Positions 4,569 through 63,117 of a stretch of 64,000 bases of DNA are shown here, piece after piece. The DNA lies in the NCBI GenBank assembly GCA_965248535.1, contig CBDFJR010000005.1, positions 288,001-352,000 on the forward strand, written 5' to 3'. Position numbers and translations under genes: made by a program. Within the stretch, counting starts at the first letter, position 1, and every line of letters starts with the position of its first letter. Under the pieces are notes generated by a model. The model was not told where the DNA came from and did no database searches. It saw only the letters and a list, made by a program, of their open reading frames with translations. This DNA is from Phormidesmis sp. (GTDB taxonomy: Bacteria > Cyanobacteriota > Cyanobacteriia > Leptolyngbyales > Leptolyngbyaceae).

Positions 4569-5771
4569 ATGGGTCGTGCTAAAAAAGTTGTCCTAGCCTA
4601 TTCGGGTGGAGTTGATACGTCTGTCTGCATTCCTTACCTCAAGCAGGAATGGGGCGTTGAAGAAGTGATCACACTGGCGGCGGATCTCGGTCAAGGGGAC
4701 GAATTAGAGCCAATCCGCGAAAAAGCCCTAAAATCTGGTGCCTCTCAATCTCTGGTAGTAGACGCTACTCAGAGTTTTGTCAAAGATTACGCCTTTCCGT
4801 CTATTCAAGCCAACGCGCTCTATGAAAATCGCTATCCGCTGTCTACGGCGCTGGCGCGGCCGTTAATTGCCAAGCTGCTCGTCGATGCGGCGGCTGAATA
4901 TGGAGCCGATGCTGTCGCCCACGGCTGCACGGGTAAAGGCAATGATCAGGTGAGATTTGATGTGGCGATCGCCGCCCTCAACCCCGATCTCAAAGTCCTG
5001 GCACCTGCACGAGAATGGGGCATGAGCCGCGAAGAAACGATCGCCTACGGGGAGAACTTCGGTATTCCTTCCCCGGTCAAAAAATCGTCGCCCTACAGCA
5101 TCGATCGCAACCTCTTGGGGCGCAGCATTGAGGCGGGGCCGCTCGAAGATCCCTGGACGGAAGCCTTAGACGAAGTGTTTGACCTCACGAAGGCGATCGC
5201 CGACACGCCCAACGAGCCAGAATATGTCGAGATCGGCTTTGAGCAAGGAATCCCCGTCAGTCTCAATGGTGAGATGCTGAGTCCGATCGATCTGATCACC
5301 CAACTGAACCAAAAAGCTGGGGATCACGGCTTTGGTCGCATCGACATGGTAGAAAACCGTCTGGTCGGCATCAAATCACGAGAGATTTATGAAGCTCCGG
5401 CGCTGCTAGTGCTGATTCAGGCTCACCGCGATTTAGAAAGTTTGACTCTGACCAAAGATGTCAGCCAATACAAACGGGGCATCGAAGAAACCTACGCTAA
5501 TCTGGTCTACAACGGTCTTTGGTACAGTCCTCTCAAAGGGGCGCTGGATGCCTTTGTTGCCCAAACCCAAGAGCGAGTTTCAGGAACCGTCCGCGTCAAG
5601 CTGTTTAAGGGAACTGCGCTGATTGTGGGTCGCCAATCTAGCAAAACCCTCTACACGCCTGAATTAGCAACTTATGGATCGGACGACAAGTTTGACCATA
5701 AAGCGGCTGAAGGCTTTATCTACGTTTGGGGGTTGCCCACCCGCGTTTGGTCACAAAACTTGAGAGGATAG
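4569..5771 (+). CDS. argG: Argininosuccinate synthase
   Basis: [30 protein letters not shown]. Confidence 0.99.
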
Positions 5772-8559: not shown

Positions 8560-9561
8560 TTATGAAGGGGTGGTTTGCTTAAGGTTTTCTTCCCAGAGAC
8601 GGGGAGGAGACGCACGACGAATCTCGCGCCAAATTGCAGTTGCCGCTAATGTACCATCTGCAACCGCAATTGATACCTGATTGAGTCCTTCTTTTAGGTC
8701 TCCTAGGGCAAAAACTCGCGCATGAGAGGTGCGGCACATGCTATCGGTGACCAAATTTCCCCCTTTCCACTCTAAATCTAGGTCTTTTAGATATTGGTTA
8801 AAGAAATGGGAACCCATCGCAACCAGTCCGTTTTCAAGCTCTACGATCGAGTCATCTTCTAGCTGCACCCCGGTCATGTGATGGTCATGACCTAAAAATC
8901 GGCGAATCGGCGTTTCAATGAGGGGATAGCCGTGGGCGTGGAGCTTTTCGCGCATCTCTTTGCCGACTTCACACAGCCCTTGCGTAAAGACAGTGATATA
9001 GGGCGTAAACCAGTTCAGCACGAACGCCGTGTTGATGGCAGCTTCGCTGTTCACAAACAAACCACAGGGGGTATCTGCCATCTCATAGCCGTCACAGATC
9101 ATGCAGACGTGGAGGTTATAGCCCGCATAGTCATAGACGTTTTGCATATCGTCTAGGTGGGGCAGATGATCGATCAATCCGCTAGCAGCCACCAAATATT
9201 TAGAGCGAAACACGGGATAGGCGCTGTCTTTTTTGCCGACTTTGACCTTGACCGCAAAGGTGTCACCCTCATCTTGAACTGCCTCGACAAAGCCGGGGAG
9301 ATAGTCACCGTCTAGCGATTGCAGATGGTCTTGCCCTTGCTGAAGGATGGCGCGTCCGGGGGTGGTGGGCGGCAACCCCAAATAATTTCGCATATCCTGC
9401 ATCCAGAACGATCGCCCGCGGCCTTTCTCAATCACTAAAGTCGAAAGACGGTATCGTTGCAGATAGAGAGCGGCTGACAAACCTCCTGCGCCGCCGCCGA
9501 CGATGATGGCATCGTAGGTGCGATCGAGACGCTGATCTAAGTTTTTGCGTGAGAGCTTCAT
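8560..9561 (-). CDS. NAD(P)/FAD-dependent oxidoreductase (thioredoxin reductase-like)
   Basis: GGGAGG FAD motif, CMICDG, VFALGD. Confidence 0.9.
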   Translation of the reverse strand: MKLSRKNLDQRLDRTYDAIIVGGGAGGLSAALYLQRYRLSTLVIEKGRGRSFWMQDMRNYLGLPPTTPGRAILQQGQDHLQSLDGDYLPGFVEAVQDEGDTFAVKVKVGKKDSAYPVFRSKYLVAASGLIDHLPHLDDMQNVYDYAGYNLHVCMICDGYEMADTPCGLFVNSEAAINTAFVLNWFTPYITVFTQGLCEVGKEMREKLHAHGYPLIETPIRRFLGHDHHMTGVQLEDDSIVELENGLVAMGSHFFNQYLKDLDLEWKGGNLVTDSMCRTSHARVFALGDLKEGLNQVSIAVADGTLAATAIWREIRRASPPRLWEENLKQTTPS

Positions 9562-9667
9562 GGCGTGATTTGATAAAACTAAAACTGGGTGAATACAAAC
9601 ATAGGGAGCCATCACAGCCCCCTAACGTCAACAAAAAACCCCTACGCTTACAGCCTAGCTCTGATTT

Positions 9668-9997
9668 CTAGACCTCAGCCGCTTCAACCTCAGCCTCTTC
9701 GGGTGGAGGCACTTCTTGCTTGACGGTCATATAGCGAATGACCTCGGTGCTGAGGCGCATGGCCCGCTCCATGGGCGCAACCTGGCTGCCATCGCCTTGA
9801 TAGTTCATCTGAATATAGACACCTTCGCGCTGTTTGGCGATCTCGTAGGCCAAACGCCGCTTGCCGCGATGTTGAGTTTCGATGATTTCTGCGCCGTTTT
9901 CCTTCAGAATATTCTGATACTTCTCGATCGCTCCATCAACTGCTTCGTCTCCCACATCGGGACGAAGGATATACATAGTTTCGTAAATGTACTTCAT
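9668..9997 (-). CDS. rpsF: 30S ribosomal protein S6
   Basis: [19 protein letters not shown]. Confidence 0.98.
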
Positions 9998-12154: not shown

Positions 12155-12610
12155 ATGCGCGTTGCTTACTTTAGACTTGCATCCATATTGGGAGTTGTAG
12201 GGGCCCTTAGCCTCAGCAGTTCTTCAGGTGCCAACCATCCTCCTTTATTTGCGGTTCTTTCGGGCGGGAACGAGGTAGACATGAAAGGTATGGCTGCTAA
12301 AGGTGACCCCGATGCCTATGGGTCAGCCACGATCATTCTAAATTCAACTAAAAATACCCTTTGTTTTGCCCTAACCGTTGACAATATCGAACCCGCTACC
12401 GCCGCCCATATTCACAAAGGCACTGCGGGTATGAATGGGCCTGTGGTCGTTCCTCTGACGGCTCCTATGATGTCGCCGGGTGCTTCTAGCGGCTGTGTGA
12501 CGATCGATGCCGCTTTACTCAAAGATATGCAAGATAAATCAACAGGCTACTATGTCAATCTGCATAATCCTAAATTTAAAGATGGTGCGCTTCGGGGTCA
12601 GCTTTACTAG
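12155..12610 (+). CDS. Secreted CHRD-domain protein
   Basis: Signal peptide; LSGGNEV, AHIHKG...NGPVV, YYVNLHN...GALRGQL. Confidence 0.9.
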   Translation: MRVAYFRLASILGVVGALSLSSSSGANHPPLFAVLSGGNEVDMKGMAAKGDPDAYGSATIILNSTKNTLCFALTVDNIEPATAAHIHKGTAGMNGPVVVPLTAPMMSPGASSGCVTIDAALLKDMQDKSTGYYVNLHNPKFKDGALRGQLY

Positions 12611-12753
12611 AACGCGCTGCCTGACTGCTGTTATTAGGGGTAAGCAATAGTCTGGGTGTAGGTCGTTGAGGGATCAGATACGCTATTCGCTCCGAATACA
12701 GTCACTCTAACCAAAACCCTAGGGATCAAGAATTAAATTAGGACTCAGATCTG

Positions 12754-12784
12754 AGAATGGGCACGGCCATGCCGTGCCCATTCT
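12754..12784. repeat. REP-like palindrome / probable terminator
   Basis: AGAATGGGCACGGC-CAT-GCCGTGCCCATTCT, a 14-bp perfect inverted repeat between convergent genes. Confidence 0.7.
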
Positions 12785-12819
12785 TGTTGTCAGAAACAGA
12801 GAGGATTCAATTCAGCATC

Positions 12820-13461
12820 CTAACCTGGCTTCAGCGCATCTAACGCTAAATTCAGCTTCAGCACATTCACCCCCGGCTCACCAAACAGACCCAGAAATCG
12901 ACCGTCTGTGTTTTGAGCAATTAACCCTTTAAGCTGGTCAGGCGACAGGCTGCGCGCTTTAGCCACCCGATCGATCTGAGCCGTTGCCCCATCGGGCGTA
13001 ATGTGGGGATCAAGACTAGACCCAGACGTATAGACTAAATCTGCCGTTGGCTTTACCCCTGCCTTTTGCAAACGGGGCAGATCGCCCTCGATCGCTTTGG
13101 CGGGGTCGGGGTCACTTTTGCCTTTGATGCGGTCTAACAGGGCTGGGTTGCTCGGAGCCAAATTGCTCGCGCCCGATACGCCCGTTTTGAGAATGCCTGC
13201 ATCATCTTTTTTAGGATCGGCAGTGCTGTAACTAGTGGTGCTAGGGCGGCTATTAAAGTAGCGATCGGACGTAAAAGGCTGACCGATCAGTGCCGAGCCA
13301 ACCACCTGCCCTTGAGCATTTTTGAGCAAGCTGCCGTTGGCTTGGAAGGGAAAGACAAGTTGCCCAAAGGCAATCATCGCAAATGGGTAAATAATCGCCG
13401 TCAAAACCCAAAGCACCAACGTAGATCGAACGGCTCTGCTAGCCTCGCGTGCAAAACTCAT
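12820..13461 (-). CDS. kdpC: K+-transporting ATPase subunit C
   Basis: QANGSL, SGASNL, SGSSLDPHI, GEPGVNVLKLNLALD; ATG overlaps the upstream stop. Confidence 0.96.
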   Translation of the reverse strand: MSFAREASRAVRSTLVLWVLTAIIYPFAMIAFGQLVFPFQANGSLLKNAQGQVVGSALIGQPFTSDRYFNSRPSTTSYSTADPKKDDAGILKTGVSGASNLAPSNPALLDRIKGKSDPDPAKAIEGDLPRLQKAGVKPTADLVYTSGSSLDPHITPDGATAQIDRVAKARSLSPDQLKGLIAQNTDGRFLGLFGEPGVNVLKLNLALDALKPG

Positions 13462-44120: not shown

Positions 44121-44244
44121 GATTTGCCCAATGTTGGCGACTGCTTCATTCATCTTAATGGTCTCAAAGTCTTAAAGCGAGATTTTTCGGTCGAGAACAG
44201 GAGGACGTTAGAATATGAAGACAAGTGTTAAGAAATGTGACGTT

Positions 44245-45780
44245 ATGTCTACACAGGTTGCTGCTGACCAATCTTCTCGCGTCGTCGTAATTGGTGCCGG
44301 AATCGGTGGCTTAACGACGGCAGCTTTGTTGGCACATCGTGGCTATCAGGTGTTGGTGTTAGATCAAGCCTTAGTTCCGGGTGGATGTGCTTCGACTTTT
44401 AAGCGACAGGGTTTCACGTTTGATGTAGGCGCGACTCAGGTAGCAGGCTTAGAACCCGGAGGCATTCATCATCGAATTTTCTCTGAGCTAGAAATCGACT
44501 TGCCTGAAGCGATTCCCTGCGATCCTGCCTGTGCGGTTTTTTTGCCCGGTGAAACTGAGCCAATCAACGTCTGGCGTGATCCGCAAAAATGGCAGGCAGA
44601 ACGAGAGCGGCAGTTTCCTGGCAGTGCTCCTTTTTGGCAGCTTCTGGCGGATTTGTTCAAACATAGCTGGGCGTTTCAGATGCGCGACCCGGTGCTGCCG
44701 CCTCGCAATATTTGGGATTTGTGGCAACTCACCAAAGCCGTGCGTCCCGACACGTTGATGACGCTGCCTCACACCTTCTCAACGGTCGGAGATGCCCTAC
44801 GCGGATATGGGTTGGGTGACAATCAGCGCTTGAGAACCTTTTTAGATTTGCAGCTTAAACTCTATTCTCAAGTTAACGCTGAGGAGACGGCTTTGCTTTA
44901 TGCAGCAACCGCTTTGGGCGTTTCGCAAGCGCCACACGGGTTGTTTCACCTTGAGGGCAGTATGCAGGTGTTGAGCGATCGTCTCGTCTCGGCGTTAGAG
45001 CGCGTTTACCCCGAAGGGGGAACTGCTGCGCAACGCGGTCACCTCCTAATGCGTCACACGGTCGAAAAGATTCACCTCCAAGCCGGAAAGCCCACAGGAG
45101 TCACGATCCGCAATCAGAAGACAGGCGAAACTTGGGTTGAACCCGCCGATCGCGTTGTTGCCAATGTCACGGTTCAAAATCTGATGCAGCTTTTAGACGA
45201 AGATGCCCCAAAAGGCTATCAGCGTCGAGTTGATAAGCTGCCTCCGTCTTCTGGCGCATTCGTCATTTATTTAGGCGTTGATCAGTCGGCGATTCCTGAT
45301 CACTGTCCGCCACATCTGCAATTTTTATATGACTATGAGGGCGCGATCGGAGAAAACAATTCTCTATTCGTCTCAGTCAGCCATCCTGGAGATGGTCGCG
45401 CTCCTGACGGCAAAGCGACGGTGATCGCGTCGTCCTTCACCGATTCGGCACTGTGGTTTCAGTGCGATGACTATGAGGCGTTGAAGAAAAAATATAGTGA
45501 GGAAGCGATCGCTCGTCTCAGCCAGTTCTTTGATTTAGAGGGCACGATCGTTTACCAGGAAGCCGCGACTCCTCGGACGTTTCAACACTTTACGGGGCGC
45601 GATCGCGGTGCAGTTGGCGGCATTGGTCAGCGAGTGCCAACGTTTGGCCCGTTTGGATTTGCCAATCGCACCCCGATTAAAGATCTGTGGCTTGTAGGTG
45701 ACTCAACTCATCCCGGTGAGGGCACGGCGGGCGTGAGTTATTCGGCTTTGACTGTGGTGAGGCAGATCGAAGCGGAGTAA
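44245..45780 (+). CDS. crtD: Carotenoid C-3',4' desaturase
   Basis: GAGIGG, FDVGATQVAGLEPGGIH, GDSTHPGEGTAGVS. Confidence 0.88.
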   Translation: MSTQVAADQSSRVVVIGAGIGGLTTAALLAHRGYQVLVLDQALVPGGCASTFKRQGFTFDVGATQVAGLEPGGIHHRIFSELEIDLPEAIPCDPACAVFLPGETEPINVWRDPQKWQAERERQFPGSAPFWQLLADLFKHSWAFQMRDPVLPPRNIWDLWQLTKAVRPDTLMTLPHTFSTVGDALRGYGLGDNQRLRTFLDLQLKLYSQVNAEETALLYAATALGVSQAPHGLFHLEGSMQVLSDRLVSALERVYPEGGTAAQRGHLLMRHTVEKIHLQAGKPTGVTIRNQKTGETWVEPADRVVANVTVQNLMQLLDEDAPKGYQRRVDKLPPSSGAFVIYLGVDQSAIPDHCPPHLQFLYDYEGAIGENNSLFVSVSHPGDGRAPDGKATVIASSFTDSALWFQCDDYEALKKKYSEEAIARLSQFFDLEGTIVYQEAATPRTFQHFTGRDRGAVGGIGQRVPTFGPFGFANRTPIKDLWLVGDSTHPGEGTAGVSYSALTVVRQIEAE

Positions 45781-45818
45781 ATGCTACGATCGTTCCTATT
45801 CTTTCACGGTTGACGGTG

Positions 45819-46094
45819 ATGAATCTTCCTCCTCAGCTACAGCAAAAAGTTGAACAATGGTCAAATTTGCAGGGAATTGAGCCAGAGCAATTCATTATGG
45901 ACGCGATCGCCGAGAAAGTGAATCGGCTCGATCTGCAACAACCCAAACTTCTTTCTGAACCTAGACTCTATCGAAAAAGCGGTGTCTTAGTTGTAGAAGC
46001 TGGATGGGATGAGGACATAGATATTAACGAATTTATTGACCGTTTGCGTGAAGAGCGGAATCAGGAGATATGGGCGGGTGAAAGTTCTATTTGA
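45819..46094 (+). CDS. Putative antitoxin (partner of the PIN toxin)
   Basis: RHH-like N-terminus; overlaps the PIN gene start. Confidence 0.65.
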   Translation: MNLPPQLQQKVEQWSNLQGIEPEQFIMDAIAEKVNRLDLQQPKLLSEPRLYRKSGVLVVEAGWDEDIDINEFIDRLREERNQEIWAGESSI

Positions 46095-46513
46095 TACTTC
46101 TGTTTTGGTTGCCTGCACTTGTGGTAGAGCATCCTCGGCATTCCGTTTGTTTTCCCTGGCTCGAACAATCGAGACAACAGGAAATTCAGGCATTCATCTC
46201 GACTCATACATTAGCTGAAGCATATTCTGTATTGACAGGTACTCCTACTCGATCGCGGATTTCTCCGGCGGTTGCTCAAGAACTGCTGACAGATTGCTTG
46301 CGATATTTTGAAGTAGTTTCTATCGATGCTGATGATTATCAAGCAGCGATCGCTCAAATGGTCGCACTGAACCTACCAGGCGGTGGAATCTATGACGCAC
46401 TGATTGCACAGGCCGCTCTTAAAGGTAATGCAGAGGTCTTACTGACGCTAAACGCGAAGCATTTCACTCGATTGGGAGATACGATCGCGCCTCTCGTACA
46501 AACTCCACAGTAG
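46078..46513 (+). pseudogene. PIN/VapC toxin with a +1 frameshift near 46112
   Basis: GTG start gives MKVLFDTSVLVA; the rest (ALVVEHPRH...LAEAYSVL...IYDALIA...LLTLN) is in another frame. Confidence 0.8.
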
Positions 46514-46553: not shown

Positions 46554-48227
46554 CTACAACCGCCAAAGTGTTTTTAGACAGTTGATAAGTTTTATCTGCC
46601 GTCGATCAATAACTATTGATGTCCACTCTTCATCATGAAGCACTTGTGTTGTTAGTGCAAAAGGGCAAACTCCAGAGCTTGTAGTGAAGTATTTCTTCTT
46701 CTTTGTCCCGAATTCATAGTTCTGTGACTCACTATTTTTTGCACGCGAGAGCAAAACTAAGTTACCTAGACGATGAACATACTGCTGACGAATTTCTTCA
46801 GTAGGAAACCACTGCATCCATTCACTTTCGCTTGCCGGATTTTGGGGCAATACGTGTTCAACTGTAATAATGCGATGATCATAAGAAGCTTCGCCTGTGG
46901 AAAGTTCAGCATCCAAACGTAGCAAAACATACAGGCGAATTCTTCGAGCTAAATAGAGATCACCATTAAGGTTTCGTAAAATATTGTGCTGTTCTTCAGA
47001 AGTCAATTGAAGAGGCGAGTCTACTTGAAATAAGTCTCCCTCAGCGTTGATCGCGCTCAACAAACGGCTGAATCGTTCGATTCGCTGATTGATGTTTGAT
47101 CGTTGAATCATCAGACCTGCGGCAAGCCTCTCTAAGTCTGTGAAAAAACGAATAAGCAGATCAGAATCGTTGCGATATTTTGACAGAAAAAGGATCGCGG
47201 GTGGCACCCAATCAGAACTATCGACCCAGTTCAGCCACTTGAACAAGCTGTTGACTTTCTCTGCCCGTCGATCGCTCTGATAAGTTAACGTGTAAATTTC
47301 TTGAAAGGCATCAGCAAGGGGACAAAGAATCTCATCGATAAATTTCTGAGGGTGCTCGGTTGGCTTTACGTGCTCACGAAATTCTTTGATCACGCTGCCA
47401 GCAGGTTTTGCCTTGCGATAAATCATGCGAATGTGAGAGAACAGGCCTTTGAATTGCTCTCTGCCTAACCTCTCTTCAGTGTCTTCCCATCGAATTGTGT
47501 ATTTCTCTTGGTACTGTTCAGGGAGTTTTCCAATGACCTCAGCTTTGAGAATGTCTGTAGGGGATAGATCGAGTCCTCGATCATTCATGACTGAGAATAT
47601 TCGATAGGCAGAATCAGAATCGGGTGTGGTGACGACAACTAGGAAGCATCTTGTTGCAATGAACTTTCCCAAGCGGATGCGCTGTGATTCTGATATTTGT
47701 TCAAGTCTAGATAGCAGTTTGTTTGCATTATCTTTGATATTGCATTGGCTATCGGAGAGTCCGTTAGAGTTTAAGATCTTGAGCTTGTCAACTCCATTCT
47801 CGTCTTGAATGTATTTTCTGAAAAACTCTTTATCTCGATCGCGCAAGGTTAAACGATAATGCTTCTCTACCCCAGCAAACGAGTCCTCTGGCTGACAAAG
47901 ACGAAGTGTTATGCCACTTGCGAAATCGGAAGGTACTAATGTTCGCAGTGCTGATAACAGGATCGTTATGGTTGTGAGGCGCTGCTGACCATCCACAACT
48001 TCAGAATCACGCTCAGTTCCCTTAATCAGCACAATGCTGCCAAGAAAATAGGGATCATTCTGATCAATTTCTTCGCTACCATCGCCCAAAGCTGTGATAA
48101 GGTCATCTAGCAAATCTTCAGATTGCTCAGTCGTCCAAGCATAGGGGCGTTGGTAGCCTGGAATTTTGAAGGTGAATTCATCACTAAAAACTTTGTAGAG
48201 GGGATATTCAGCAGCTTTAATAGACAT
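46554..48227 (-). CDS. DUF262 + DUF1524 (HNH) protein, GmrSD-like defence nuclease
   Basis: YQRPYAW, DGQQRLTT, MNDRG, VEHVLPQ...LGNLVLL...N; AT-rich. Confidence 0.9.
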   Translation of the reverse strand: MSIKAAEYPLYKVFSDEFTFKIPGYQRPYAWTTEQSEDLLDDLITALGDGSEEIDQNDPYFLGSIVLIKGTERDSEVVDGQQRLTTITILLSALRTLVPSDFASGITLRLCQPEDSFAGVEKHYRLTLRDRDKEFFRKYIQDENGVDKLKILNSNGLSDSQCNIKDNANKLLSRLEQISESQRIRLGKFIATRCFLVVVTTPDSDSAYRIFSVMNDRGLDLSPTDILKAEVIGKLPEQYQEKYTIRWEDTEERLGREQFKGLFSHIRMIYRKAKPAGSVIKEFREHVKPTEHPQKFIDEILCPLADAFQEIYTLTYQSDRRAEKVNSLFKWLNWVDSSDWVPPAILFLSKYRNDSDLLIRFFTDLERLAAGLMIQRSNINQRIERFSRLLSAINAEGDLFQVDSPLQLTSEEQHNILRNLNGDLYLARRIRLYVLLRLDAELSTGEASYDHRIITVEHVLPQNPASESEWMQWFPTEEIRQQYVHRLGNLVLLSRAKNSESQNYEFGTKKKKYFTTSSGVCPFALTTQVLHDEEWTSIVIDRRQIKLINCLKTLWRL

Positions 48228-48331: not shown

Positions 48332-48442
48332 ATCCTCAAGTACGTCACAGTACGCCTCTTCCTCCAGCGCATCGGCGGTCGCTATCGCTTTATTCACAAG
48401 CTTTTGCAAGAACACTTTGCAGGAATGAGGGGTGAGGGATGA
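48332..48442 (+). repeat. NACHT-protein C-terminus repeat, copy 1
   Basis: Translates ILKYVTVRLFLQRIGGRYRFIHKLLQEHFAGMRGEG*; no start codon. Confidence 0.85.
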
Positions 48443-48490
48443 GAAACTGGGCAAGGTAAACTAGAGTGAATCCTTACTGCTAGAACCGCA

Positions 48491-48706
48491 ATGCAAGTCA
48501 AAGATTTAACGACCGACGAACTTAAGACTTTAATTCGCGAAACCGTTCTAGAAACCTTAGAAGCGTTTCTGGATGACCCCGATGAAGGCAAAGAAATTCG
48601 TCCAGAAGTAAAACAACAACTGATCGACTCACTACAGCAGACACGCACCGGAGAACGCGGAATTCCAGCAGCAGAAGTCGCCAGAAAACTGGGCTTGTCC
48701 TGGTAA
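48491..48706 (+). CDS. Antitoxin of a RelE pair
   Basis: MQVKDLT...DPDEG...AEVARKLGL; stop overlaps the relE start. Confidence 0.8.
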   Translation: MQVKDLTTDELKTLIRETVLETLEAFLDDPDEGKEIRPEVKQQLIDSLQQTRTGERGIPAAEVARKLGLSW

Positions 48707-48966
48707 TGGAATACACAGTTGAATTTAAGGCTGCGGCACTTTCCCAACTAGAACACATTAGCCAGAACAATCAGAAACGAATCCTTCGTAAAATTCGTTG
48801 GCTCACAGATAACTTTGAGCAACTCACGCCCCAACCGCTCACAGGGGAGTTAAGTCGTCTATTTAAGCTGAGAATTGGTGATTATCGCGCCCTCTACTCC
48901 TTCGATGAGGAAACCCAAATCATCACCTTCCATCGCATTGGGCACCGCAGCGAAATCTACTTGTGA
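48706..48966 (+). CDS. RelE/ParE family toxin
   Basis: LTGEL...KLRIGDYRALY...IGHRSEIY. Confidence 0.92.
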   Translation: MEYTVEFKAAALSQLEHISQNNQKRILRKIRWLTDNFEQLTPQPLTGELSRLFKLRIGDYRALYSFDEETQIITFHRIGHRSEIYL

Positions 48967-48980
48967 GACAGCGCCTCCAA

Positions 48981-49112
48981 TTTCTCCACTACGCCACCGA
49001 TCGCCTCTTCCTCCAGCGAGTCGGTGGTCGCTACCGCTTCATTCACAAGCTCTTGCAAGAGCACTTTGCAGCGATGAGTGAAGTTTCCGCTCCGCTTCGC
49101 GAGGAGAGATGA
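48981..49112 (+). repeat. NACHT-protein C-terminus repeat, copy 2
   Basis: Translates FLHYATDRLFLQRVGGRYRFIHKLLQEHFAAMSEVSAPLREER*. Confidence 0.88.
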
Positions 49113-49152
49113 GGAATTAAACTGAGAAAGTTAGAAGTTCTCGAAAAGCAAG

Positions 49153-49413
49153 ATGGACGTTAGTAAAGAAAGCCAACAACCCTCGATCGACCCCTCTCAA
49201 TCCCCAGCAACAGTGGATGAACCATTGAGAGCGATCGCCTACAGTATGGATGTCCTGATTCCAGGCTTTTATCTCTGGCTCGGTGCCTTCAAACTTCGCA
49301 TCGGTGGCAGCCTGCCAGAAACGACCTATCCTGGCACACTCCATAGCTTTGCTGGCATTTCCGTTGTTTTACCAGGCTATCGAATCTACACAACCTATCA
49401 CGGCAGTTATTGA
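49153..49413 (+). CDS. Hypothetical protein, first gene of an overlapping pair
   Basis: 86-aa ORF with a 4-bp overlap to the next gene. Confidence 0.65.
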   Translation: MDVSKESQQPSIDPSQSPATVDEPLRAIAYSMDVLIPGFYLWLGAFKLRIGGSLPETTYPGTLHSFAGISVVLPGYRIYTTYHGSY

Positions 49414-49640
49414 CCCTCGATAAACACAAAATCGATGGAGTGCCCCAAATTACCGTGAGAGTTTTGCCAACCGAAGAGTTCGACGCACTGCTGATACAAG
49501 CTGGATACCGCAAGATTGGATCGGCTCCTGCTCAAGGAAACCGCATCAAAAGCGGGTGGATTCATTCAACATTTGCCAGAGTCGAAGCGATTTACAGCCC
49601 AGACGGAACCCTAGCAATTACCGCATATCACATCACTTGA
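49410..49640 (+). CDS. Hypothetical protein, toxin-like second gene of the pair
   Basis: 76 aa, ends AITAYH. Confidence 0.65.
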   Translation: MTLDKHKIDGVPQITVRVLPTEEFDALLIQAGYRKIGSAPAQGNRIKSGWIHSTFARVEAIYSPDGTLAITAYHIT

Positions 49641-49652
49641 TAGAGAATTACT

Positions 49653-49814
49653 GAGTACCCCACATAACGCCTCTTCCTCCAGCGAGTCGGAAAACACAAC
49701 GTGTGGCGAAGCTTTCGCGATGCCCTCGGCTCTCGTTTGTGAGTTCGCTTCATTCACAAGCTCTTGCAAGAACACTTCGCCAAAATGGAAAAATCGGGAC
49801 GATCGTCCCCGTGA
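49653..49814 (+). repeat. NACHT-protein C-terminus repeat, copy 3 (with internal insertion)
   Basis: EYPT*RLFLQRVG-[insert]-RFIHKLLQEHFAKMEKSGRSSP*. Confidence 0.85.
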
Positions 49815-49848
49815 TATCTTGACTCCATCACCCCACCCACATTGAGCT

Positions 49849-50085
49849 ATGAACCCCTCTCAACCCAAACAGCAATTTACCGCAATCATTGAACGAGAAG
49901 GTGATGGATATGTTGCGCTCTGTCCTGAACTGGATATTGCAAGTCAAGGTGACACCGTAGAGCAAGCTAAACAGAATCTCACCGAAGCGGTAGAGCTATT
50001 TTTTGAGGTTGCCGACCCTTCAGAAGTTAAGAGACGCTTGCGAACCGACGTGTTTATTACCCGATTGGAGGTCGCCGTTGGGTAA
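49849..50085 (+). CDS. HicB-family antitoxin
   Basis: FTAIIEREGDGYVALCPELDIASQGDTVEQA. Confidence 0.9.
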   Translation: MNPSQPKQQFTAIIEREGDGYVALCPELDIASQGDTVEQAKQNLTEAVELFFEVADPSEVKRRLRTDVFITRLEVAVG

Positions 50086-50302
50086 GCTTCGCGTGTTATC
50101 AGGGCAACAAGTTTGCCGCATTCTCGAAGAACAGGGGTTTATTGAAGTTCGGCAAAAAGGCAGCCACATCATCATGCAGTTTGCAACCGATGAGACGACT
50201 GTGACGGTTCCAATACCCAACCATTCAGAACTTCGTACTGGAACATTACGCTCCATCATTCGCCAGTGCGGTCTTCCTCGTGAATTGTTTGAGGTGACTT
50301 AG
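50078..50302 (+). CDS. HicA-family toxin
   Basis: TTG start after GGAGG; RQKGSH, VPIPNH...GTLRSII. Confidence 0.9.
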   Translation: MGKLRVLSGQQVCRILEEQGFIEVRQKGSHIIMQFATDETTVTVPIPNHSELRTGTLRSIIRQCGLPRELFEVT

Positions 50303-50313
50303 CCAAGTTTCTA

Positions 50314-52272
50314 TCACCGCCCCACAATTTTCTTCCACGCTGCAATCTGAAGTTGAGCTTGAGCATAGGCATTTGTGCGCGGCGGAATCTTTTGAGCCGT
50401 CACGATCGCGCCCCCCATATCCGTGTCTGCTTGGCTAATAGCCGCCTGCAAAATTTGCTGACTCCACAGCCCGATCGCTTGCTCAGCCTCACTCCTTTGA
50501 GGACTCGCACCCGGAACCCCATTAGCCAACCGAATCGCTTCAACAAGGGAATCAGGAGTGCCACCATTGGCTGCAATTTTGGCTTGCTGAAGGCCTTGTT
50601 CGGCTTGCTGTCGGCGCTGCCAAGTTTGCAACTTTGATTGAGCATCGTCATAGATTGCGCTTTTAGAGCCGATGCTTTGAGTAAGCGCGATCGCGCCAGG
50701 TAAATCACCTGACTCAGCCAACCTGTCGGCCTGACTCAAAATCGGCGCATCTTGCAGTTGAGCCAACTGACGATTCCACTGTCTGATTCGGTTTTGGGCC
50801 TCTTTATAGAGAGTCCGACCTGGCCCAATCTGGCTAGCCTGATCCATTGCAGTTTGCAGGTTGGCAATATCACCGCGACTCGCAAACTGATCGGCTTGGT
50901 CGAGCAATGGACGGTCTTGCTGAGTTTGCATTTGTCCGCTCAGATCGGTCGCGAGTTTTTGCGCTTCCTGAGAGCGAGGATTGCTAGACGGCACCAGAGA
51001 CGCTTGAGCGATCGCTGCCTGCAAATCTTCAGGTTTGCCCGACTGAGCCAACTGGCGCGCTTTCTCTAACTGAGCAATGTCGCCCTTCTCTGATTGCCAG
51101 CGATTGAGAAGCGTCTGAGCTTTTGCATAAAGTGGGCGACCCATCTCGACTTTTTGAATCTGAGCGATCGCTTCTTCTAGATCAGCCACTGTTCCGCTCC
51201 AAGATTTAGCCTGAGCGCGGGCAATCACCTCAAAATCTTCGGCTTCGCGCTGCAAGTTGGCGATCGGCGGAATTTTGCTCACAATCTCCAGTGCTCCCTG
51301 CAAGTCGCGGCGGGTCAGGGTGTCTTGCGCCAAATCGAGCATTTTTTGCCCAAACTTAGCGATCGTGTCTTGCGCCTCTTGATAGACATAGCTCTTGGCA
51401 TCGACGTTAGACGCGAGTTTAATCGCCTCCAGCAGGTTAGAAACGCCGCCCCGATCGGCTAAATCTTTGGCTTTGGCAATCTTGCTGATGTCGGCGCGAG
51501 TCACGGTGATTTTTTCGGTCAGTTCTTGATATTTTGTGGTCTGCCAGAAGTTATTCTCAATGGAAAGTAACCGAGCCGCGTCAGAGGACGCTTTACGCCA
51601 ATTTTGATCGCGCAGCGCATCTTCGACTCGCCGATAGATCGCTTCTGCATCTGACCAAATCGCTTGCCAACGGGTGATGCGGGCTTCGACTTCGCTATGG
51701 ATGCTGGCGCTTTGAGGCACCTTGTGAGCAGTGGCGATCGCGTCACCCAACTTGCCCGCGTTAAACGCATCATCGCCCAACTGCAAAATCTCGGTTGACC
51801 ACTGCTCAATCAGTCGCGAAGACTCTTGGTGCAGGGGGTGATCGGGGGGCAAACTGTTGAGAAGCTGAATCGCCTCTAGCAAATCGTTGACCGTTTGCTT
51901 GTTGGCGGCCAGTTGAGCGCAGTGCAGCCGCAGCGAGGCAGAGGCCAGCGGCCAAAAAATAGCCGGACAGTTGGGCACGGCAGGCAGCTTAAACAGAAAC
52001 CCGATCGCCAAAAATGACATCCCACCCGTTAGGGCCAACCCCAAACCTGCTGCGACTCTCCAATCGGTTAAGGCTTGTCTCAGCCGCTTTTTGAAGCGGG
52101 ACTTTGAGAGATTCTGAGACCCCGCAGAACTGGACTGAGATGCCACGATCGCCTCTAAAGGCTGGCTCGGTTGATGCAGAGACAATGACTCTGGGGAGGG
52201 TAACTCAAAGGGGTTCCCTGGTTTTTGCGATTTGGGAAGCCGCCGATCTGGAATGCCGCGATCTCTAGTCAT
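50314..52272 (-). CDS. Conserved cyanobacterial membrane-anchored helical-repeat protein
   Basis: TM followed by PNCPAIFWPLASASLRLHCA and repeated AIA.A..I helical units. Confidence 0.8.
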   Translation of the reverse strand: MTRDRGIPDRRLPKSQKPGNPFELPSPESLSLHQPSQPLEAIVASQSSSAGSQNLSKSRFKKRLRQALTDWRVAAGLGLALTGGMSFLAIGFLFKLPAVPNCPAIFWPLASASLRLHCAQLAANKQTVNDLLEAIQLLNSLPPDHPLHQESSRLIEQWSTEILQLGDDAFNAGKLGDAIATAHKVPQSASIHSEVEARITRWQAIWSDAEAIYRRVEDALRDQNWRKASSDAARLLSIENNFWQTTKYQELTEKITVTRADISKIAKAKDLADRGGVSNLLEAIKLASNVDAKSYVYQEAQDTIAKFGQKMLDLAQDTLTRRDLQGALEIVSKIPPIANLQREAEDFEVIARAQAKSWSGTVADLEEAIAQIQKVEMGRPLYAKAQTLLNRWQSEKGDIAQLEKARQLAQSGKPEDLQAAIAQASLVPSSNPRSQEAQKLATDLSGQMQTQQDRPLLDQADQFASRGDIANLQTAMDQASQIGPGRTLYKEAQNRIRQWNRQLAQLQDAPILSQADRLAESGDLPGAIALTQSIGSKSAIYDDAQSKLQTWQRRQQAEQGLQQAKIAANGGTPDSLVEAIRLANGVPGASPQRSEAEQAIGLWSQQILQAAISQADTDMGGAIVTAQKIPPRTNAYAQAQLQIAAWKKIVGR

Positions 52273-59995: not shown

Positions 59996-61318
59996 ATGGG
60001 TCAGCCTCTTCATTCAAAAGCCAATTATTTTTTTCAGCAGGGGCAGCAGTTGAGCAAGGCAAAAGCTTATGCAGCCGCGATCGCTCAGTTTGATAAAGCC
60101 TTAGAAAACCAGCCCGATTTCCACGCCGGGTGGTATGAGCGCGGCAAAGCTCTTTATGACTTGGGCGATTATCAGGCGGCGATCGTCAACTTTAAAGAAG
60201 TCATTGTGCTCAGATCTGACTATGCCCCAGCCTGGAACAATCAAGGTATGGCTCTGGCAAAGCTAAACCGCCATAACGAAGCGGTTGCTAGCTACGATCG
60301 AGCGATTGAGCTATATCCCAAAAACTACAAGGCTTGGTATAACCGGGGCAATGCGCTGATGAAGCTCAACTCTAGCCAAGAAGCCCTTCGCAGCTATGAA
60401 GAGACGCTCAAACTCAAGCCCGACTATGCAAGAGCCTGGTATAACCGGGGCATTGTTTTAACCCATCTGCGGCGCTATGAGGCTGCGATCGCCAGTTATG
60501 ACAAAGCTCTAGAGGTGCGTCCTCACTTTTCAGATGCTCACTACAATCAAGGGAATCTTTTTAGCCGATTGGGGCGGTTTCAAGATGCCCTCAATAGCTA
60601 CGATCGGGTGTTAGAAATTAAGTCCAGTGTGCCCGATGTGTGGCTTGGTCAAGCCCATGCACTGCACAAGCTGGGGTTTCATGAGCAGGCACTGCAAAGC
60701 TATGATACGGCGTTGCAGTTAAATCCGGCGGCTCACGAAGCCTGGTATAACCGGGGCAACACGCTAGAGACGCTTTGGCGCTATGAAGATGCGATCGAGA
60801 GTTATCATCGCGCTCTGCAATTAAAGCCAGACTTTCCAGAAGCTCTTTATAACCAGGGATGCGCCTTTCAGAGGTTAGGCGACTTGGCTCAGGCGATCGA
60901 CTATTACGATCGGGCTGTGGCTGCTAAACCCGACTTTTATGAAGTTTGGAGTGGTCGCGGCGTTGCTCTGCGTAAATTGGGGCGCTATGACGAAGCGATC
61001 GAGAGCTTCGATCGAGCGTTGGCGATCAATCCTGATTGTGATGAAAGCTGGTATCGTCGGGGTCGAGCGCTCGATCATATTGGGCAAAGTGAGGCGGCGG
61101 TAGCAAGTTATGACAGAGCGCTGAGTCTGTCTCCTGAGTTTGACAAAGCTTGGTATAGCCGAGGCGTGGCGCTGAGTCGATTAGAGAATCACGAGGGCGC
61201 GATCGTCAGTTATGACAAAGCGCTGGCGTTGACTCCTGACTTTCCCAACGCTCAAAGCAGCCGCAGCCTCTCAATGAAGTATTTGCAGCAGAGTCAGTTG
61301 CCTTTGGTCGATCCATAA
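59996..61318 (+). CDS. Tetratricopeptide repeat protein
   Basis: About 12 tandem 34-aa AWYNRG..L..L..Y..A..SYD.A repeats. Confidence 0.95.
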   Translation: MGQPLHSKANYFFQQGQQLSKAKAYAAAIAQFDKALENQPDFHAGWYERGKALYDLGDYQAAIVNFKEVIVLRSDYAPAWNNQGMALAKLNRHNEAVASYDRAIELYPKNYKAWYNRGNALMKLNSSQEALRSYEETLKLKPDYARAWYNRGIVLTHLRRYEAAIASYDKALEVRPHFSDAHYNQGNLFSRLGRFQDALNSYDRVLEIKSSVPDVWLGQAHALHKLGFHEQALQSYDTALQLNPAAHEAWYNRGNTLETLWRYEDAIESYHRALQLKPDFPEALYNQGCAFQRLGDLAQAIDYYDRAVAAKPDFYEVWSGRGVALRKLGRYDEAIESFDRALAINPDCDESWYRRGRALDHIGQSEAAVASYDRALSLSPEFDKAWYSRGVALSRLENHEGAIVSYDKALALTPDFPNAQSSRSLSMKYLQQSQLPLVDP

Positions 61319-62934: not shown

Positions 62935-62982
62935 TTCAACAAGCCAACCGCTAGCCAACGCTTAACCTGCTGTCAGAGCGGA

Positions 62983-63071
62983 GGCTAACAACGCCCATGC
63001 ACACCGACCGCTAAGAGTTGATCGGTGATGATGCAGAGGCTACTTGCGGCGGGTGATGGGCAACGTTGGGC
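62983..63071 (+). mobile_element. Integron attC site 1
   Basis: R'' GGCTAAC ... R' GTTGGGC; left arm GCCCATgCACaCCGaCCGC pairs with GCGGCGGGTGATGGGC, leaving three extrahelical bases. Confidence 0.9.
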
Positions 63072-63117
63072 TGGTGCGAATAGCGAATAGAAGCGCGAAT
63101 TGATAGAATCGAAGACT

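Follow-up and report, generated by a model that had tools for sequence, protein, structure and literature searches.

How a row of small toxin–antitoxin (TA) genes comes to be punctuated by direct repeats that each encode the end of an unrelated protein is the question raised by this locus of Phormidesmis sp. We addressed it in a window of 64,000 nucleotides (the whole stretch of DNA that was analysed), in the 5-Mb genome to which it belongs (G000) and in related genomes. A sequence-only reading of the window had seen an integron-independent array, built from units of a NACHT gene 3′ end plus TA cargo.

Results

Organization of the array

The features of the locus are listed below in order, with their strand; the left edges of the repeats are given in nt relative to the His codon of the motif FIHK.

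44215–45780 (+): flavin oxidoreductase, conserved left flank (Pfam Amino_oxidase)
45810–46513 (+): antitoxin-like gene and PIN/VapC gene, upstream cargo (Pfam PIN, 1.5e-12)
46554–48227 (−): GmrSD-family (DUF262/DUF1524) defence gene (Pfam GmrSD_N/C; PADLOC)
48332–48442 (+): orphan NACHT 3′ end, copy 1 with its own tail; left edge −62
48491–48966 (+): module 1, antitoxin-like gene (71 aa) and RelE/ParE toxin (86 aa; Pfam ParE/RelE, 3.7e-12)
48975–49112 (+): orphan NACHT 3′ end, copy 2; left edge −67; tail matching the NACHT gene end in G006
49153–49640 (+): module 2, pair without family match (86 and 76 aa)
49647–49814 (+): orphan NACHT 3′ end, copy 3; left edge −57; 45-nt net insertion and stops
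49849–50302 (+): module 3, HicB-like and HicA genes (HicA, 1.3e-18; the HicB-like partner is weak)
50314–52272 (−): 652-aa repeat protein, conserved right flank; stop 12 nt from the HicA stop

The three direct, diverged repeats were borne out by alignment and by blastn against G000 (E = 2e-23 to 1e-8); each reads as the end of a NACHT-membrane protein and lacks a start codon. Copies 1 and 2 share 84% identity over 95 nt (48335–48429 and 48984–49078), while copy 3 aligns as two pieces (49654–49690 and 49745–49787). The translated ends are ...EHFAGMRGEG* for copy 1, ...EHFAAMSEVSAPLREER* for copy 2 and ...EHFAKMEKSGRSSP* for copy 3, the last one lying downstream of a 15-codon insertion with a stop; no second copy of this 45-nt insert was found anywhere in G000. 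Copies 2 and 3 do follow the preceding stop closely, at 10 and 12 nt rather than the 12–15 bp first given. The differences had also been described as mostly synonymous, which holds for the core only: when the proposed dN/dS comparison was run as codon counts, copies 1 and 2 differed over 30 codons by 7 synonymous and 5 non-synonymous changes.

No intact parent of the NACHT subfamily of the repeat was found in G000. The sole intact relative found there is a paralog (P0001), 55–62% identical over the end peptide, which is the final gene of an integron array. A fourth copy, near glmS (C5:74505–74590), is likewise an orphan and is followed by a broken PIN pair and then glmS.

Each repeat heads a two-gene module, as had been proposed, and the RelE/ParE, family-less and HicAB-like pairs were all found. 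The module 1 pair also occurs behind NACHT ends at other loci (G001, G032, G040, G055, G061, G062, G071, G077, and G081). Owing to an additional T near 49410, the first gene's end and the second gene's ATG are both shifted in module 2; base 49410 is absent from one contig of sequencing run X2. This module had no match in Pfam, NCBIfam, or PADLOC; it has 131 homologues and a confidently predicted fold, for which no match was obtained in the PDB (nothing by Foldseek at E<=0.001; best VIA-align Z 5.6) and only unnamed cyanobacterial clusters in the ESM Atlas. At 14 of 17 family loci module 2 stands without any NACHT end; at 3 of these 14 it sits within an array in which some other repeat occurs three times, and in two of the three arrays that repeat reads as a gene end. 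For module 3, HicB lies directly 3′ of NACHT ends in G004, where the tail behind intact NACHT ends matches that of copy 3, and of an orphan end in G089.

The left-flank oxidoreductase, which we take to be carotenoid isomerase-like, is present in 7 of the 8 genus genomes, with differing downstream neighbours; PEP-CTERM-like and DprA/ComF-like are likewise presumptive labels. No repeat was detected around the PIN/VapC pair (45810–46513), and because base 46109 is absent from the X1 and X2 contigs, the assembled frame there may be shifted. At the same locus in G006, a decayed NACHT gene lies behind the same oxidoreductase gene and ends in the copy 2 tail, followed by module 2, a repeat, and another pair; the GmrSD gene of the window occupies the spot of this NACHT gene body. 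The junction between GmrSD and the repeat is common to the window and G005, which has GmrSD, one repeat, and module 2 at this locus, and lacks module 1 between them. G005 could represent an empty site for module 1, although it comes from a different species and its repeat shares only 86% identity with copy 2.

Contigs of runs X2 and X3 join 48397 to 49384, and a contig of run X1 joins 49794 back to 48333 (depth 3.7, 43-nt side). These joints, which have further sequence in between, fit strain variants or other organisms, judged from the contigs, and are no demonstration of excised circles. A metagenome pattern scan returned 2 loci only.

The parental NACHT gene and its conserved end

The assignment of the repeat peptide to the C-terminus of NACHT-membrane proteins was corroborated, as intact relatives bear a NACHT domain (Pfam PF05729, 7.2e-9 in L127 and 5.5e-10 in L002), followed by a hypervariable hydrophobic region and the conserved end. 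A PDB profile search with an intact parent matched the Walker A region only. The end peptide may complete the winged-helix domain of the protein. At the nucleotide level, the last ~125 nt (~41 codons) are the most conserved block and are preceded by 700–900 nt of hypervariable membrane-coding sequence. Within lineages, identity is 84–91% in the end block vs 38–56% in the membrane region, and third-position identity is 0.75–0.84 in the end block vs 0.61–0.73 in the NACHT core, figures that are inflated by the way in which the loci were found.

The NACHT partner genes had no Pfam match. By eye, the partner gene at L002 resembles Bell, and it may be Bell-like. In the Bell/BASS amyloid-signalling pair, an upstream Bell-domain gene shares an amyloid motif with the NLR N-terminus (10.1101/2020.01.06.895854).

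Arrays in related genomes

The DNA repeat was found in 6 of the 8 genomes of the genus and in 29 of the 90 of the family. A protein profile, which also picks up paralogous subfamilies, had matches in 65 of the 90 family genomes and 132 of the 301 class genomes, and a search at the level of the order returned the same family again and nothing further. Among 35 hand-picked family loci, 18 (in 17 genomes) are multi-copy, with 2–5 copies each. A full-length end occupies the first position at 11 of these 18 (three damaged or contig-cut) and a later position at none, and the 29 internal copies include no intact gene. L133, for example, comprises a NACHT gene with four orphans, and L134 three. Intact NACHT genes followed by arrays of their own ends, which the sequence-only reading had suggested looking for by BLAST, occur in several genera. 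An exception outside the family is L066/L067, where an orphan precedes a 748-aa NACHT frame. In the named records, which are mostly of Nostocales, other genes usually lie behind NACHT ends, and orphans are mostly single.

The cargo is strain-variable, as predicted, rather than fixed: its content and order differ between strains, and our adjacency table holds more than 40 distinct upstream–downstream combinations (omitted from the counts were L010, whose context is a duplicate, and the latter half of copy 3 in the window). In G001, for instance, the order at glmS is NACHT gene, PIN pair, orphan end, module 1. The pool is small and consists of RelE/ParE, PIN, MazF, DUF433/DUF5615, DUF4258/YgiT, HigBA-like, and family-less pairs, some of them inverted. 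TA cargo was assigned behind 18 of the 21 intact family ends, two or three of the cargo types being pairs without a family.

The view that the unit is a gene 3′ end plus its cargo was upheld, since tail and downstream cargo move together. Ends of one genus that precede the same cargo have tails in common (score 21.9 in 26 pairs vs 12.1 in 152 pairs). In the 6 within-genus pairs with a common upstream cargo the left side is no more alike, and this comparison did not locate crossovers inside the repeat. The further suggestion that recombination swaps the NACHT C-terminal tail is right in that the tail travels with the cargo; because the swap alters just 1–12 residues past the conserved Met, a diversification of NACHT function is unlikely.

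Edges and decay of the orphan ends

The window copies do begin at nearly the same codon, as had been noticed, and this is a local regularity. The left edges of 40 orphans range from −97 to +2, so that the repeats have no shared left boundary, and all of them fall inside the conserved block (L001 was left out of this list because the profile over-ran its edge). The distance from the cargo stop to the start of the orphan is no more than 25 nt in 27 of 32 cases (median 12).

Synonymous, non-synonymous, and stop codons number 101/103/7 in orphans and 100/46/1 in intact ends (Fisher p=1.6e-4; the test omits L125 from the intact ends, and also every genus that has fewer than three such ends). Orphans are released from protein constraint. 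Mismatch in them is 0.21 near the left junction and declines to 0.11, and 23 of 35 are closest to the intact-end consensus of their own genus. Exact HIP1 is present in 12 of 41 orphans vs none of 21 intact ends. Divergence does not rise with array position (rho 0.18, p 0.35), and so gives no sign of an age polarity among the copies.

Search for an integron or a recombinase

G000 has two IntI genes above the TIGR02249 cut-off, both on a contig other than that of the window, and true integrons with 86–88-nt attC hairpins, whose arrays carry TA cassettes. A first simple attC finder recovered 2 integron sites only, and we therefore built a covariance model from these hairpins and used it instead. 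This model found attC at both G000 integrons, as a positive control, and at three sites beyond its training set (window 62979–63075, L154 13910, and L154 16407); the window array and 24 array and NACHT loci gave no hit. Nothing from Rfam was found in the window. Single-strand folding of the repeats was no better than that of shuffles for 12 of 14 strands, window copy 2 alone beating them (z −2.9 and −2.2).

Among the matches listed, there was no tyrosine or serine recombinase near any array, the nearest being at least 34 kb away, and no IntI near the array loci of 16 other genomes. A fixed att core with the same boundary across copies was not found in the 40 orphans. The array is therefore integron-independent, with neither attC nor IntI at the locus. 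Site-specific recombination, which had been left as an option, found no support in a fixed edge, an attC hairpin, or an adjacent recombinase.

Direct repeats at other TA loci and HIP1

In a self-comparison of G000, ~18 other TA-type loci were flanked by direct repeats of 32–608 nt (repeats > 260 nt or > 700 nt were left out of the respective scans). Commonly, the duplicated stretch is the neighbouring gene's 3′ end, with the live copy first, as for genes encoding a WD40 protein, a TPR protein, glycogen synthase (glgA), TsaE, and a large secreted protein; at other loci it is a gene start or intergenic DNA. In an unbiased survey, repeats bracket 12 of the 29 PIN/ParE loci of G000, compared with 1.7% of 700 random sites, and 17 of the 29 toxin loci are repeat-free. 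The bracketed inserts are without a mobile-element gene, and their cargo is of TA type, not restriction-modification; an unrelated DDE transposase is found in the L122 array. Five other duplicated gene ends gave 16 synonymous vs 9 non-synonymous codon differences (5/0 for the WD40 end and 6/2 for the TPR end), and several repeat pairs are 94–98% identical. The glycogen synthase end was not duplicated in six relatives examined.

G000 is HIP1-rich (CGATCG density 4.5 per kb). CGATCG lies within 6 nt of 12 of the 36 cargo-facing junctions vs 2.65 expected from random positions within 3 kb, a null not matched for intergenic DNA, and none of 5000 shuffles reached this count (attC-containing repeats at C2:1280399 and C2:2142471 omitted). 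At the left edge of NACHT orphans, CGATCG was present in only 7 of 41.

The idea that a protein-coding NACHT anchor is special did not survive this comparison, the same scar being present at other gene ends of G000. The feature extends further than was first seen, and the NACHT array is a hot spot of a general process instead of a cassette system dedicated to NACHT genes. The probable reason for the concentration at NACHT ends is that strains have such ends at many loci.

Discussion

A mechanism and its alternatives

We favour, on comparative evidence and with a probability of about 0.55, a displacement in which incoming DNA consisting of a NACHT end and a TA pair would recombine into a resident end and push the old end, together with its cargo, downstream without an integrase, with later shuffling by ordinary recombination. 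A RecA crossover inside the conserved block would anchor the donor, and its far end would be joined illegitimately just past the cargo stop, often at CGATCG, to the displaced resident end. Once a module has an end on both sides, it could be lost, gained, or moved to any NACHT end by homologous recombination, which would shuffle module order and carry modules between loci. The cargo would persist through TA addiction even when the NACHT body disappears or gives way to another gene, as to GmrSD here, and the same process would act at other gene ends of G000. This proposal draws on the intact-first order, the edges in the conserved block, the linkage of tail and cargo, the movement between loci, and the allele-like differences among copies. 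A ComEC gene is present in G000 and, as a putative competence gene, may be consistent with DNA uptake. Random donor ends would not be expected to give joints so near stop codons, for which trimming or selection at a later stage has to be assumed, and repeat-free neighbours are also tight, HicA being 12 nt from the flank; displacement explains the tight joints only partly.

An insertion with long target duplication, which has a lesser though real chance of being the correct account, would instead start from a nick or break (perhaps at HIP1) with a gap of 30–200 nt, into which TA DNA is captured, gap filling then duplicating the target; the copies would be identical at first and would diverge once other alleles take the place of the live copy. 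The repeats at single-copy genes and intergenic sites (glgA, tsaE, and others) are better accommodated in this way, as a donor there has no reason to lack downstream homology, and the repeat pairs of 94–98% identity speak for it as well. Such duplication has been described around genes of restriction-modification systems, one example being an 88/88 repeat in Microcystis (PMC2853133). What it leaves unexplained is the same tail and cargo behind NACHT ends at different chromosomal loci, which needs end-to-end recombination, and the differences between copies lean synonymous at the WD40 and TPR ends. The products of TA pairs are RNases, whereas the restriction-modification model invokes DNA nucleases. 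Both this duplication in place and displacement may operate.

The orphans could alternatively be what is left of tandem units of a NACHT gene and a TA pair, whose bodies were deleted and whose ends persisted because they abut TA promoters. Longer NACHT remnants at single-copy loci, partner-gene remnants upstream of the first orphans at L001 and L113, and the frequency of TA cargo behind intact family ends would fit such decay, which we nevertheless consider improbable: no internal copy is intact, no orphan edge lies left of −97, and the identical scars at the glgA, tsaE, and WD40 ends would go unexplained. A site-specific recombinase acting in trans, for example either IntI of G000, and using a site within the NACHT end as the att site of circular TA cassettes, seems very improbable to us. 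Its appeal lies in the two IntI genes, in the TA cassettes of the integron arrays, in several least-eroded junctions that begin right at the cargo stop, near −90, and in the inversion of some cargo. Against it are the edges, which vary over 100 nt, the same scar at unrelated anchors, and the lack of modelled attC sites, of folding in 12 of 14 strands, and of a nearby recombinase among the matches listed.

Between the core genes of cyanobacteria, TA and other small defence genes are numerous, most of them without an adjacent transposase or integrase. The scars described here are a readable record of the arrival of TA genes, about four in ten PIN/ParE loci of one genome carrying a target duplication, and the NACHT end is a compact substrate, with a block of ~125 nt and a cargo of 550 nt. 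The CGATCG bias at junctions bears on the long-open function of HIP1 and fits the reported rise in transformation when HIP1 in the homology arms is methylated (10.1101/2024.09.10.611283).

Comparison with known systems

Insertion with long target duplication was reportedly described by Nobusato et al. in 2000. In a later account (Furuta et al. 2010, PMC2853133), defence-type genes lie between variable direct repeats > 30 bp, with no mobile-element gene, as they do here; some of those repeats overlap gene 3′ ends, and one cyanobacterial case is listed. Our loci differ from those in their type II TA cargo, in arrays of 2–5 copies on one anchor family, in allele-like copies, and in CGATCG-rich junctions.

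The effector-immunity arrays of the Vibrio cholerae T6SS (Kirchberger et al. 2017, PMC5361080) resemble the present ones in a conserved anchor, a homology-facilitated illegitimate joint (putative here), an old module that would be pushed downstream, the intact gene in first position, and the lack of an integrase. There, a variable toxic C-terminus and its immunity gene are displaced, whereas here the end is conserved and is accompanied by free-standing TA pairs unrelated to the anchor protein. The same likeness and the same difference apply to Rhs C-terminal displacement, as cited there. In the Staphylococcus aureus lpl cluster (Tsuru and Kobayashi 2008, PMC2568036), the exchange unit likewise spans the 3′ part of an ORF and downstream DNA, by way of a conserved intragenic block; its units are intact paralogs, unlike the dead ~100-nt ends with unrelated cargo found here.

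Integrons and CALINs share with these loci compact TA arrays of variable order, some cargo inversion, and repeats near stop codons, and they differ in their attC sites, in IntI at the locus, and in a fixed crossover. The element e14 in icd and SCC at rlmH integrate into the 3′ end of a gene and restore it, leaving the old copy as a pseudogene fragment. The duplicated gene end is thus common to them and to our array, and the site-specific recombinase and the fixed core that they use were not found here. A description of TA pairs or NACHT ends in such cyanobacterial arrays was not found in the literature searched, which missed most subscription journals and bioRxiv supplements.

It is possible, although we lean against it, that these loci constitute an integrase-free counterpart of the integron. 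The conserved 3′ ends of multi-copy families, NACHT above all, would be landing pads, HIP1 would provide the second joint, and two-armed TA modules would be portable cassettes, selected to keep a ~100-nt arm tight to the stop and circulating between loci, strains, and genera; if true, this would be natural evidence that HIP1 marks gene-acquisition junctions. Judged by analogy with the known systems, the array is a combination of long target duplication and C-terminal displacement, to which TA cargo and a HIP1 signal are added.

Orphan ends on other anchors

Module 2, the gene pair at window 49153–49640, is a two-gene module conserved in cyanobacteria that adjoins TA clusters. It was also found inside three-copy arrays on anchors other than NACHT, at L162 (genome G047), L164 (G034) and L170 (G087); two of the three anchors read as gene ends, one of them presumably PEP-CTERM-like, and the third is a HIP1-rich spacer. 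The fold predicted for the second protein of the module is a confident one (pLDDT 96.6), confidently modeled as a helix and a four-stranded sheet, and comparison with the PDB gave no match to it. Orphan protein ends also form a second family, translated as ...VRGMVDAMREVCNQWK*, which is dispersed in the genome holding the window (G000; C2:2382360, C2:2383476, C2:2201498 and C5:2185024) and brackets PIN pairs at two loci.

Integrons, introns, and solitary attC sites

Two complete integrons were identified on contig C2 of G000, one containing a gene pair (which we take to be DprA/ComF-like), a partner gene and the NACHT paralog P0001, and the other containing TA cassettes.

L153 2243–10432: complete integron
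L154 7579–14003: complete integron
L153 ~4800–5500, opposite to attC strand: group II intron (Rfam RF02001, RF01998)
L154 ~9215–9920, opposite to attC strand: group II intron (Rfam RF02001, RF01998)
L154 ~12160–12862, opposite to attC strand: group II intron (Rfam RF02001, RF01998)
Window 62979–63075, + strand: solitary attC-like site (50.5 bits, attC model)
Window 59996–61318: TPR-repeat gene (102-nt periodic repeats)

The three introns are near-identical, of ~700 nt each, and were inserted at attC sites, on the opposite strand. None of them contains a long ORF, and a reverse-transcriptase gene lies away from them, at C2:2381106–2382221. The solitary site, flanked by two 170-aa genes close to the end of the window, is a possible CALIN; further solitary attC sites are at C2:2140700, C5:1695087 and C5:2445331. 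The TPR-repeat gene is an ordinary one.

Variation in NACHT genes and ends

At L066/L067, where an orphan end lies upstream of the NACHT gene, the membrane region of this gene appears to have been deleted, with the core joined straight to the conserved end. The tails at L133, L134, L122, and L123 contain short tandem purine-rich heptamer-like repeats, which in these genera come after almost every NACHT end and lengthen the shared stretch of homology. Short insertions at HIP1-like positions were observed in the orphan ends of L122, L134, L135, and L137 and at window 49690–49745, one being common to orphans whose cargo differs on both sides; these insertions, we presume, resemble small dispersed mobile repeats.
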